From contig OZ241996.1 of the NCBI GenBank assembly GCA_965204535.1, positions 1,280,001 to 1,344,000 on the forward strand: a stretch of 64,000 nucleotides of DNA, given 5' to 3'. Of the stretch, positions 28,750-32,233 are shown one piece after another. Every line of letters starts with the position of its first letter. Within the stretch, counting starts at the first letter, position 1. The notes below the pieces were generated by a model. It ran no database searches. It saw nothing but the letters and a program-made list of their open reading frames with translations, and was not told the origin of the DNA. Source of the DNA: a bacterium. Lineage in GTDB: Bacteria > UBA8248. Made by a program: the position numbers and the translations under genes.

Positions 28750-29646
28750 CTAATTTTTTCCCTCCGCTTTAGGCTTGATGCCGAGCTCCCTTCTTTTCCG
28801 GATCACGCCCGAGAGGCGGTACCATTCCGCGCGGCCGGGGTCGATTCTGGAGCCGCGCTCGATGAGGCGCGAGGCGAAGGCCGGCTCCTTGTTCAGATAA
28901 ACGAGCAGGGAGGCGAGGTTCAGGAGCACGCCCGCGTCTTCGGGCGATAATTCCTCCGCCGCCTTGAGCACCTTCTCCGCCTCTTCGTAGCGGTACTGGG
29001 AGACCAGGTATCTGGCGTACCTGTTGGAGACGACCGGGTTCTCGGGGGCGAGTTCGCGGGCCTTGTCATATGCGGCGAGCGTTTCTTCGAGATCACCCGC
29101 CTCGTCCATCACCTTCGCCAGGGCGAGCCAGGCGTCCACGTTTCCGGGATTGATCTCGAGATCGCGGCGGATGAGCGCAAGCGCGGCCTCGTCTTTTTTC
29201 TTCTCCATGAGCGCCAGGGCGCGTTCGTAATGCGCGCTCGTGGTTTTCTGGAGAATGGAAAATCCCTCGTCCGACTCGATGATTCTCGACGTGGCGCCGA
29301 GTTTCAAATCCTGCACCTCGGCCCGGACGCCGACGCTGAACTCAGAAGGCTCGGCCTTGCGGACCGCGACCGCTTTATCCCTGAACTCCCGGGCCACCTT
29401 GCGGAAGGGAATTCCGAGGATGGCGGTCTTGTCGTACGCTTCTTTCGCCGTGTCATAGTCGGGAAGCGTCAGCACGCGGAAAAAATGCGGCTCTTCGGTT
29501 TTTTTCACCTGTGGTCGTTTTGCTTCGGGCGCCGGTTTCTTCTGCTCCTTGGGAAGGAAGAGGGCGCGGATGTTAGCGCAGCCCGCAAGCATCAGGAGAA
29601 CCGCAAGGGCGGCAATAACTTTTCCGGGCAGCCTGCGTTCGCGCAT
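28750..29646 (-). CDS. Lipoprotein with a parvulin-like segment and TPR repeats
   Basis: Lipobox LAGC; LKLGATSRIIESDEGFSILQK resembles a PpiC C-terminus; TPR helices (LEINPGNVDAW, ELAPENP, ELSPEDA). Confidence 0.7.
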   Translation of the reverse strand: MRERRLPGKVIAALAVLLMLAGCANIRALFLPKEQKKPAPEAKRPQVKKTEEPHFFRVLTLPDYDTAKEAYDKTAILGIPFRKVAREFRDKAVAVRKAEPSEFSVGVRAEVQDLKLGATSRIIESDEGFSILQKTTSAHYERALALMEKKKDEAALALIRRDLEINPGNVDAWLALAKVMDEAGDLEETLAAYDKARELAPENPVVSNRYARYLVSQYRYEEAEKVLKAAEELSPEDAGVLLNLASLLVYLNKEPAFASRLIERGSRIDPGRAEWYRLSGVIRKRRELGIKPKAEGKN

Positions 29647-29653
29647 GGTGGTG

Positions 29654-30283
29654 CTAGGCTTCCCCGTCGGCCAGGGCGCGCTCGAAGGCTTGCCGGAAAA
29701 TTTCCATGGGCTGCGCGCCGGTGATCCTGTATTTGCCGGCGAAATCGACCGTAGGCGTGGACTGTATGCCTGCATTCACCGCCTCGACGTGATCCGCCCG
29801 GACGCGCTTTTCCATATCCGGGTTGGCCATGACCTCGCGCATGATCGCGGGCTCCGCTCCCAGCCGCTCGGCGGCGGTCACGAGCACCTCAAAGTCGTCG
29901 ATGTTCAGGCATACGACCAAGTGCGTTCTCTCCACGGCTTCGAGATATTCACCCTCGCGTTCGGGAAGTTGGGCGGCGAAGGCCTTTATCGCAATCGCGC
30001 CGGGGGTGGAGTGGGGGTAGGGAAAGTCGCGGCGCGCCATGAGTTCGGGATTGATCGCCTCGCCGCCGGGGTGGCTTTTCGCCATCGCCCAGTGGCCCAT
30101 GATGGCCTCCTTGCGGGCCGGACGATAGTCCGGTTCGGGCGAGAGCAGAAAGGCGCGGTATCGGATGGCGAGGCGCCCGCCCGCCTGCTCGCTCAATGTT
30201 CGCAACCGCCCGGTCGCGATGAGGCACCAGGCTCAGTGGACGCAATAGGTATAGGTGGCTTCTACGACGGATTCGTTCGGCAA
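29654..30283 (-). CDS. DsbA/FrnE-like thioredoxin-fold selenoprotein (C14-V-H-U17-A-W-C20), 209 aa
   Basis: ORF 29654..30205 has RYRAFLL, GIQSTPT and ITGAQP but no redox motif; the upstream frame reads TTG-PNESVVEATYTYCVH-TGA(30233-30235)-AWC after a GGGGAG RBS. Confidence 0.85.
30200..30219 (-). promoter_or_regulatory. Putative bacterial SECIS apical hairpin
   Basis: UCGCGACC-GGGC-GGUUGCGA; loop begins 22 nt after the UGA; lower pairings CUCA/UGAG and GCCUG/CAGGC. Confidence 0.72.
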
Positions 30284-30361
30284 TGCGCGCTCCCCATCGT
30301 TCGGCGGACTTAAGGACCAATCCTTTCACCTCCAAGGATTCAGCGCAATACAGAATGTAGC

Positions 30362-31042
30362 TCAGCTAAGAAAGTCCCGCGTATGCCGGGCGCGCGAAGA
30401 ATCCTCGGAGAGGCGGCCCTTCAAGGCCTCCAGATCGTCCGCATCGTCCACGTCGCGCCACTCGGGGAGGAGGGAAACCTCGATATGGAGCGTGTCCGCT
30501 CTTGCAATCGTTCGGGAAAGCACCTCGCTCGTGCTCCAGGGTATGCCGGTGAAAATTTCAGGCAGGAACCGGTTCATCCCAATGAGATAGTAGCCCCCGT
30601 CCGCCGCGGGGCCGAGCGCGACGGTCGGTTCATCCCCGCACTCCAGCTTCTCGAACGCATCTATCAGAACTTCATGCGGCAGATCCGGGAAATCCGTGCC
30701 GATGAGCACAGCATTCCTCCCGGCCGCCAGGCATCGCCCCAGCGCCGCCGCCATGCGCATCCCTAAGTCCGCGCCCGCTTGCGCCCGGTGGAGAAAGGCG
30801 CCGGGCAGCCAGTCCGTGAGCGGAAAGTCATCGGGCGACTCGGCCTCCTCCAGCGCCCACTCGCAGACGAGGGAGACGCCCGGCCTCGCATCGCAGAGCG
30901 CGCGCGCCGTCTCGGCGGCGTCTCTTAAGAAACACGCATACAGATGCGCGGCCCCCTCGCGCCCGAGACTCGCCGCGAGGCGCGTCTTCACCCGGCCGGC
31001 GAGGGGCGGTTTGGCGAACAGGATGAGAGATTCAGCCGCCAT
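30362..31042 (-). CDS. DUF2064 / TIGR04282-like transferase
   Basis: FAKPPLAGRVKTRL, QAGADLG, IGTDFP, LGPAADGGYYLIG, IPWST and DVDDADDL motifs. Confidence 0.9.
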   Translation of the reverse strand: MAAESLILFAKPPLAGRVKTRLAASLGREGAAHLYACFLRDAAETARALCDARPGVSLVCEWALEEAESPDDFPLTDWLPGAFLHRAQAGADLGMRMAAALGRCLAAGRNAVLIGTDFPDLPHEVLIDAFEKLECGDEPTVALGPAADGGYYLIGMNRFLPEIFTGIPWSTSEVLSRTIARADTLHIEVSLLPEWRDVDDADDLEALKGRLSEDSSRARHTRDFLS

Positions 31043-31756: not shown

Positions 31757-32233
31757 TCACGGCCGCTTGATGATCCACTCCTCCACCAGTTCGCAGCCGC
31801 TCTCGCGGTAGAGCGCGGAAATGGGGCAGCGCCCGTGGTGCTGGTGCTTGAGTTCGGCCACCCGCTCCTCAGGCTCGTCCGTGGTGAGGTGGATTTTCGC
31901 CTCCACGTAATCGAAATTCGGGCTGATGCCGTTGTCCGGGTCCTTGGCGCCCCGGGGGTCGGCCGTGCCGCGAACCTCCACCTCCTGGGCGATGACGTTG
32001 AAGTCGAGCCCCTCGGCCACCTTGTTCGTGATGACCGTGATGCAGGCGGAAAGCGCGCCGAGGGCCAGTTCGCGCGGCGTGGGGCCCGTGTCGGTTCCCC
32101 CGCCCTGCGCCGGTTCATCGGCGACGAAGGCGTGCTTGCGCGCTTTCAACTCCACCCGGCAGCCCTCCGCGCGCGTGGCCCGAACCCGGCGCTCCTGTTT
32201 GGCCATCACTTCCTTGTCTACGGATTCCACCAT
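31757..32233 (-). CDS. OsmC family protein
   Basis: DEPAQGGGTDTGPTPRELALGALSAC and RCPI motifs. Confidence 0.9.
   Translation of the reverse strand: MVESVDKEVMAKQERRVRATRAEGCRVELKARKHAFVADEPAQGGGTDTGPTPRELALGALSACITVITNKVAEGLDFNVIAQEVEVRGTADPRGAKDPDNGISPNFDYVEAKIHLTTDEPEERVAELKHQHHGRCPISALYRESGCELVEEWIIKRP

Follow-up and report, generated by a model that had tools for sequence, protein, structure and literature searches.

A DsbA/FrnE-like selenoprotein of a UBA8248 bacterium carries overlapping CxxU and UxxC motifs around a single predicted selenocysteine

Introduction

Thioredoxin-fold selenoproteins pair their selenocysteine (Sec, U) with a cysteine on one side or the other, as UxxC or CxxU. 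DsbA-like selenoproteins of the UxxC type were described in 2005 (PMC1088965), and a 2026 review lists in its Table 1 only two forms of them, form 1 with UxxC and form 2 with DxxUP (PMC13188914). According to the same review, a bacterial SECIS element has a stem of 4-16 bp and a small apical loop with a G, located 16-37 nt past the UGA. Among the cysteine-containing relatives, the FrnE protein of Deinococcus radiodurans (DrFrnE) is reported to be a cytoplasmic reductase that reduces insulin and regenerates its active site with extra C-terminal cysteines, arranged in a CxxxxC tail that many, not all, FrnE members have (PMC8945050), and the mycoredoxin-like protein NCgl2478 works with an attacking and a resolving cysteine (PMC8280269). 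The CxxU motif of SELENOM is reported to lie between strand beta1 and helix alpha1 (PMC10668967).

In this study, we analyzed a gene within a stretch of 64,000 nucleotides (the window; positions 1,280,001 to 1,344,000 of contig OZ241996.1, assembly GCA_965204535.1) from a bacterium of the UBA8248 lineage. Three UBA8248 genomes, labelled Nitrospinota, are among the ten richest in selenoproteins in BSepDB (PMC13326102). These presumably belong to the same lineage as the genome studied here, and the genes described below may already be catalogued in BSepDB as DsbA-like. An initial annotation, made from the letters of the window, had proposed that the gene encodes a DsbA/FrnE-like selenoprotein with an overlapping CxxUxxC motif, and had noted that UxxC members of this family exist, in line with PMC1088965 and PMC13188914.

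Results

A reading frame interrupted by a single TGA codon

Translation of 29654-30283 on the minus strand with TGA read as Sec gave a protein of 209 residues. Codon 17 is its only internal TGA, and the motif around it reads C14-V-H-U17-A-W-C20, in agreement with the read-through product C-V-H-U-A-W-C of the initial annotation (Table 1). The list of open reading frames made with translation table 11 contains only a 183-aa ORF (29654-30205), which begins past the TGA. The TTG start is at 30283, and the frame can extend no further than another in-frame TGA, which lies 14 codons upstream. GA-rich runs like the GGGGAG ahead of this start, often GAGGA, also precede the start in relatives. The initial annotation had seen no signal peptide, and by eye the first residues of the 209-aa protein indeed show no basic/hydrophobic signal-peptide pattern. 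Promoter and terminator scans gave counts near chance (2 vs 0.9 and 11 vs 6.3). A contig from a sequencing run is identical over 29500-30500 and may be the source of the window, and the contig of a second sample terminates within the TGA codon. Contigs from RNA libraries of a relative span 29667-30218 in three pieces, which stop before the TGA and are no demonstration of transcription.

Table 1. Features of the selenoprotein gene, its upstream neighbor and related genes of the same genome (window positions unless a contig is named)
Feature	Position	Strand	Remarks
DsbA/FrnE-like selenoprotein gene	29654..30283	minus	209 aa, TTG start, TAG stop
In-frame TGA (Sec17), attacking-cysteine position	30233..30235	minus	TGA in 25/25 orthologues
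Cys14, replaces family Asp three residues before nucleophile	30242..30244	minus	TGC in 25/25
Cys20, canonical resolving-cysteine position	30224..30226	minus	Cys in 24/25 orthologues, Arg in G008
SECIS-type hairpin	30200..30219	minus	8-bp stem, GGGC apical loop 21 nt past TGA
Shine-Dalgarno-like GGGGAG	30290..30295	minus	6 nt ahead of TTG
H121-L-V-x-C125 segment	29909..29923	minus	H121 and C125 invariant in 18/18 aligned orthologues
S175-T176-P177-T178, putative cis-proline loop of thioredoxin fold	29750..29761	minus	Invariant in alignment; aligns with G-V-P loop of FrnE; cis geometry predicted
TIGR04282 arsenosugar-biosynthesis-type glycosyltransferase, upstream neighbor	30362..31042	minus	180.3 bits vs cut-off 134; 79 nt gap
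C-Y-V-U-P-Y-A paralogue	G000:C1:726423-727079 (locus L053:1492-2148)	plus	Extra Cys before Sec, no resolving Cys
Three further DsbA-like genes (L051, L052, L054)	G000:C1:699449-700003, 1496743-1497306, 669191-669670		TGA at attacking position

A scan of all six frames of the genome gave 222 occurrences of C-x-x-TGA-x-x-C, so the bare pattern proves nothing and the case rests on homology. The scan also contained 14 occurrences of one translated string of 27 residues, on contigs C1 and C2 (for example at C1:744840 and C2:619822), which points to a multi-copy mobile element.

The TGA codon and a downstream hairpin are conserved

A profile search of 51 genomes of the phylum gave strong orthologues, all with E values of at most 2e-63. 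They are present in 25 of the 51 genomes, 21 from family f1 (including this genome) and 4 from family f4, with identities that reach down to about 49%; no orthologue was found by this search in four g1 genomes that are 94-100% complete. The conservation of C14, named beforehand as a check by the initial annotation, holds throughout: all 25 orthologues have TGA at codon 17 together with Cys14, His16 and Trp19, and 24 have Cys20. H16, H64, H121 and C125 are invariant among 18 aligned orthologues. The start codon is TTG in 24 orthologues and ATG in one, and the four f4 genes start two codons later. Two orthologues show damage that may reflect assembly error or decay, namely C20R plus L30P in G008 (L015) and a frameshift near residue 138 in G032 (L024).

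The hairpin fits the bacterial SECIS criteria, with an 8-bp stem and its GGGC loop at 21 nt. Its codons 24, 26 and 27 are base-identical in all 25 orthologues, codon 23 contributes to a G-U pair in some and an A-U pair in others, and variation is seen in codon 25, which makes up most of the loop. Among 14 f1 orthologues, where the pairs compared are non-independent, pairwise single-base differences in codons 7-16 were mostly synonymous (178, against 49 non-synonymous), as were the pairwise differences in the gene body (3284 against 1243). Synonymous changes were rarer in the hairpin codons (7.6 vs 19.5 per codon, again from non-independent pairs of the 14 f1 orthologues). The C14 codon is TGC in all 25 without any synonymous change, which leaves some room for a base-level constraint on C14 in this gene.

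The genome (95.7% complete) encodes SelA, SelB and SelD, all above curated cut-offs, and a tRNA-Sec, so that the sel genes named as a check by the initial annotation are present; the selD gene itself has an in-frame TGA. With TGA rather than TGC at codon 17, the Sec machinery in the genome and C14 conserved, the initial annotation survived on each of the three points at which it could have failed. Judging from these sequence features, the gene almost certainly encodes a real DsbA-like selenoprotein. The opposite reading, in which translation really stops at the TGA or the codon is an assembly error, and the product is a 183-aa or shorter protein or the gene a pseudogene, would fit the damaged G032 and G008 orthologues and the databases, where the close orthologues (21 matches of the protein) are all N-truncated, none spanning more than 88% of the query. 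Against it, the same TGA is present in 25 of 25 genes, their start codon and N-terminal residues are conserved and change mainly at synonymous sites, a hairpin conserved at the base level follows, the genome has a full Sec machinery, and homologues have Cys at the same position. A truncated form would lose strand 1 and the whole active site. We consider this reading extremely improbable.

The protein belongs to the DsbA-like family but is not a canonical FrnE

The 209-aa protein matched the DSBA domain (PF01323) with 46.8 bits against a cut-off of 25.6, and no NCBIfam model reached its cut-off. The model for the Rcas_1661 family thioredoxin-like (seleno)lipoprotein (NF041057) was rejected; it scored 28.2 bits against 190, over the C-terminal part only, and the protein has no lipoprotein signal. 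Among solved structures, SCO1869 and DrFrnE are the best sequence relatives, and in both the attacking Cys aligns with U17. An AlphaFold2 model, with Cys in place of Sec, has a pLDDT of 93 and places a strand at residues 7-13 and a helix at 18-34; its best fits among solved folds were 2in3 (Z 25.2), DrFrnE (22.3), YjbH (21.9), DsbM (21.3) and kappa GSTs (about 19).

The initial annotation had set C14, U17 and C20 against the Asp, the attacking Cys and the resolving Cys of D-x-x-C-P-W-C. This register is borne out by the ungapped alignment with DrFrnE and SCO1869, by the paralogue with D-F-L-U-P-W-C and by the strand and helix of the model. An alternative register, in which C-V-H-U would be a shifted C-P-H-C, was ruled out by the alignment and the model. 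Of the features of the FrnE subfamily (cd03024), the protein has the DsbA-type thioredoxin fold with a helical insert and lacks, like the subfamily, a signal peptide; the Asp-preceded C-P-[W/F]-C and the C-terminal CxxxxC tail are absent. Without Asp, Pro and tail it does not qualify as a canonical FrnE. It falls within the broad DsbA-like selenoprotein family (form 1, UxxC), and since UxxC members of this family are known, CxxUxxC is a new active-site variant and not a new family.

Cys14 replaces a nearly universal aspartate

To see how unusual Cys14 is, we took the best 150 of 695 representative homologue matches and screened the 145 that were new; among those shorter than 300 aa, 74 had a scorable CxxC. 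In 73 of the 74 an Asp lies three residues before the first Cys, and in the remaining one the match is not the active site. Homologues have Cys or Sec at the nucleophile position; conservation of Cys/Sec at position 17 was among the checks proposed in the initial annotation. No Cys-only C-x-x-C-x-x-C version was present among the best 150 of 695 representative matches and 42 profile matches, and a literature search that covered few subscription papers found no description of CxxUxxC. A search for the role of the Asp, PMC3792642 included, returned nothing usable, and the acidic residue discussed in PMC2749146 is a different one.

The closest sequences, at 33-44% identity, are an Asp-type sister group with H-D-V-L-[C/U]-[A/V]-W-C (the uncharacterised P0035, P0046, P0048 and P0053; loci L067-L071), which was the sister of this gene in both of our trees (quick-method, unrooted). 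The group shares E-E-I-x-G-H-W, F-P-Y-P-x-S-x-P-G and often H-L-x-E-C-x-N-I with our protein, and both Sec and Cys versions exist, but it keeps Asp at the Cys14 position. Part of it (P0034, P0041, P0046, P0048 and P0053) also has the H121-x-x-x-C125 segment; C125, being common to Asp-type relatives, is older than Cys14.

Additional cysteines occur close to the active site elsewhere. The f4 relatives of the D-F-L-U-P-W-C paralogue (L029, L122, L123 and L124) have D-Y-C-U-P-W-C, with a Cys directly before Sec, and P0066 of the sister group has H-D-C-L-S-A-W-C, in which Ser occupies the attacking position and the second residue before it is a Cys. A Cys near the site may therefore be tolerated rather than catalytic, and this bears on the main rival explanation, that the protein is an ordinary UxxC reductase in which Cys14 makes no covalent bond and only replaces the lost Asp in structure or in pKa tuning. 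The residue replaced is a conserved, non-redox Asp in nearly all scorable homologues among those best matches, and with Cys20 kept in all orthologues except one the normal resolving route is intact. Against this, the G008 orthologue has lost Cys20 and still keeps C14 and the TGA, although this gene may reflect error or decay. Cysteine is, by general chemistry, a poor stand-in for a carboxylate. The 25 orthologues form a single clade and hence count as one evolutionary event.

A paralogue made the same change separately and has no resolving cysteine

The genome has six PF01323 matches, five of them with Sec-type motifs: this gene, D-Y-T-U-P-F-C (L051), D-F-L-U-P-W-C (L052), E-Y-H-U-P-W-A (L054) and C-Y-V-U-P-Y-A. 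The last of these likewise has Cys three residues before Sec, and Ala in place of the resolving Cys. The subfamily to which it belongs, C-Y-[VI]-U-P-[YF]-A, has a match in 49 of the 51 phylum genomes; at all 40 of the 49 loci that we examined, the extra Cys (37 TGC, 3 TGT), the TGA and the Ala at the resolving position were present. Among the best 120 of 257 homologues of the paralogue, 20 had an intact motif, comprising 17 Asp-type single-cysteine proteins and 3 with C-Y-V-C-P-Y-A. Its close database entries, among the matches listed, are N-truncated. In its structural model the extra Cys directly follows strand 1 and Sec immediately precedes helix 1, as in the model of our gene. The C-Y-V-U-P-Y-A gene is located just past nitrite/sulfite-reductase-like and uroporphyrinogen methyltransferase genes, which are on the opposite strand (L128).

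In a tree of 68 proteins, each of the two extra-Cys groups formed one side of a branch with a support of 99. This gene grouped with the H-D-V-L-C-A-W-C proteins, the paralogue with D-x-x-C-P-[YW]-A proteins that have a single cysteine. Forcing both extra-Cys groups together cost 94.7 log-likelihood units (p-AU 5.3e-5), and a single origin was rejected in this test, which used 32 of the 68 rows with the motif columns masked, the LG+G4 model and motif-defined groups, and was carried out with the first tree already known. In the masked tree the paralogue rows are in an open fork with Asp-type rows, so the direction of the change, from Asp to Cys, rests on Asp being near-universal.

The only other lineage found with this change thus has no resolving Cys and keeps the extra Cys without exception, which suggests Sec as the likely partner of Cys14, in the manner of the CxxU in the SelM loop. 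The paralogue also lends indirect support to the alternative selenenylsulfide bonds that the initial annotation had put forward as a possibility. This runs counter to a purely structural role of Cys14, and we regard that role as rather unlikely. Whether Cys14 is a redox partner of the predicted Sec17 is, from the sequence comparisons, an evenly balanced call.

The neighborhood hints weakly at an arsenic link, limited to one lineage

In family f1 the gene order is the TIGR04282 glycosyltransferase, our gene, and then a TPR protein and an allantoinase-like amidohydrolase. An OsmC-like protein is encoded at 31757-32233 of the window (minus strand); the OsmC-related (seleno)protein model gave 56 bits, below its cut-off of 95, and the ORF has no internal TGA and looks like a cysteine version. 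In one f4 genome (G029; L075:6143-9065) an ArsR-family regulator and a heavy-metal P-type ATPase are divergent near the orthologue.

This context, and the suggestion of the initial annotation that the triple motif might bind metals or metalloids, raises the possibility of a three-chalcogen site, made up of C14, U17 and C20 together with H16, H121 or C125, for binding or passing on As(III), Hg(II) or a transition metal. Three S/Se donors lie within seven residues, in a protein with the invariant H16, H64, H121 and C125. A TIGR04282 gene is found within 2.5 kb upstream in all 21 f1 orthologues, TIGR04283 and TIGR04167 are also above cut-off in the genome, and the G029 locus has the metal-related genes just mentioned. 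DsbA-like mycoredoxins are reported to reduce a mycothiol-arsenate adduct (PMC8280269), and DrFrnE to be cadmium-induced (PMC8945050).

However, TIGR04282 adjacency is absent from all four f4 loci (a DUF3179 gene follows our gene in three f4 loci tested), TIGR04282 occurs in 51 of 51 genomes and our gene in 25, and the f1 genomes are close kin, so that their synteny counts as one event. The TIGR04283 glycosyltransferase (G000:C2:2676895-2677551) and the TIGR04167 radical SAM gene (C2:2186391-2187293) are on another contig than TIGR04282; the arsenosugar-type set is dispersed, and TIGR04282, TIGR04283 and an ArsS-type radical SAM gene are not clustered across lineages. H121 and C125 predate C14, and the C-Y-V-U-P-Y-A paralogue, which shares the extra Cys, has two donors only. 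The adjacency being confined to f1, the arsenic link drawn from gene context is weak and limited to a lineage, and we consider a metal or metalloid site improbable.

Discussion

Our analysis describes a gene that very likely encodes a cytoplasmic selenoenzyme with a DsbA/FrnE fold, and by analogy with its characterized relatives it likely works as a thiol-disulfide reductase. Our best explanation of the active site, held with little more than even confidence, is that the predicted attacker Sec17 has two possible sulfur partners, Cys20 and the lineage-specific Cys14. In such an enzyme, SelB would bind the hairpin and Sec would be inserted at codon 17. The selenolate of Sec17, where helix 1 begins, would then attack a substrate disulfide or mixed disulfide, like the first Cys of DrFrnE and the DsbA-like mycoredoxins, and Cys20 would resolve the adduct to give a Se17-S20 bond. 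In the last and weakest step, Cys14 at the end of strand 1 might also bond to Sec17, as a loop-type CxxU, or take over the oxidation from Se17-S20, and could serve as a built-in relay or as a guard against over-oxidation of the selenium. Either the thioredoxin reductase system or a small thiol would then reduce the oxidised enzyme again. In this 95.7% complete genome, TrxR is above cut-off and a GCS2-type ligase was found; gshB and bshC did not score above cut-off, and PF04262 had no match.

As a tentative generalization, the DsbA-fold selenoproteins of this phylum may have turned the conserved Asp into a Sec-bonding Cys twice. One selenium could then close either a loop-type CxxU ring, like SelM and SelW, or a helix-type UxxC ring, like thioredoxin, as a two-way redox switch or four-electron relay within seven residues, and the paralogue would be a DsbA-fold enzyme that resolves backwards through CxxU alone. 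The genome offers a natural series, in which one protein has both motifs around a single Sec, a paralogue has CxxU only and others have UxxC only or Sec alone. This makes the choice between UxxC and CxxU directly testable with small soluble proteins. In this lineage, moreover, a whole group of conserved redox enzymes is truncated by gene callers, as seen in the entries for the close orthologues and the paralogue among the matches listed. Should Cys14 be only structural, the protein would be a routine new member of the family described in 2005.

Compared with known systems, the protein is nearest to the DsbA-like selenoproteins of form 1, with which it shares PF01323/COG2761, Sec at the attacking position, UxxC, a SECIS-type hairpin and Cys homologues; it differs in having Cys for Asp three residues before Sec, which creates the overlapping CxxU and UxxC, and Ala for Pro after Sec. 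The model superimposes on D. radiodurans FrnE (DR_0659; PDB 5CNW/5COH) with a Z score of 22.3 and an rmsd of 2.5 over 199 residues at about 19-20% identity, and neither protein has a signal peptide. FrnE has D-x-x-C-P-W-C and a C-terminal CxxxxC tail, whereas our protein has Sec and no such tail, and its extra cysteine sits within the active-site loop. The mycoredoxin cluster (Rv2466c, NCgl2339 and NCgl2478) and DsbM resemble it as cytoplasmic reductases of DsbA-type fold in which one cysteine attacks and another resolves (PMC8280269), but have C-P-[W/F]-C and depend on mycothiol or glutathione, in contrast to the U-A-W-C found here. Finally, in SelM and the Rdx family (SelW/T/H), proteins of a thioredoxin-like fold, the CxxU is reported to follow strand beta1 and precede helix alpha1 (PMC10668967, PMC10650576), as C14-U17 does in our model. 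Theirs is a minimal fold without the DsbA helical insert and without a second Cys after Sec, whereas the 209-aa protein has the DsbA helical domain and lacks the C-terminal tGxFEI motif of the Rdx proteins named in PMC10650576; the likeness is one of position and not of homology.
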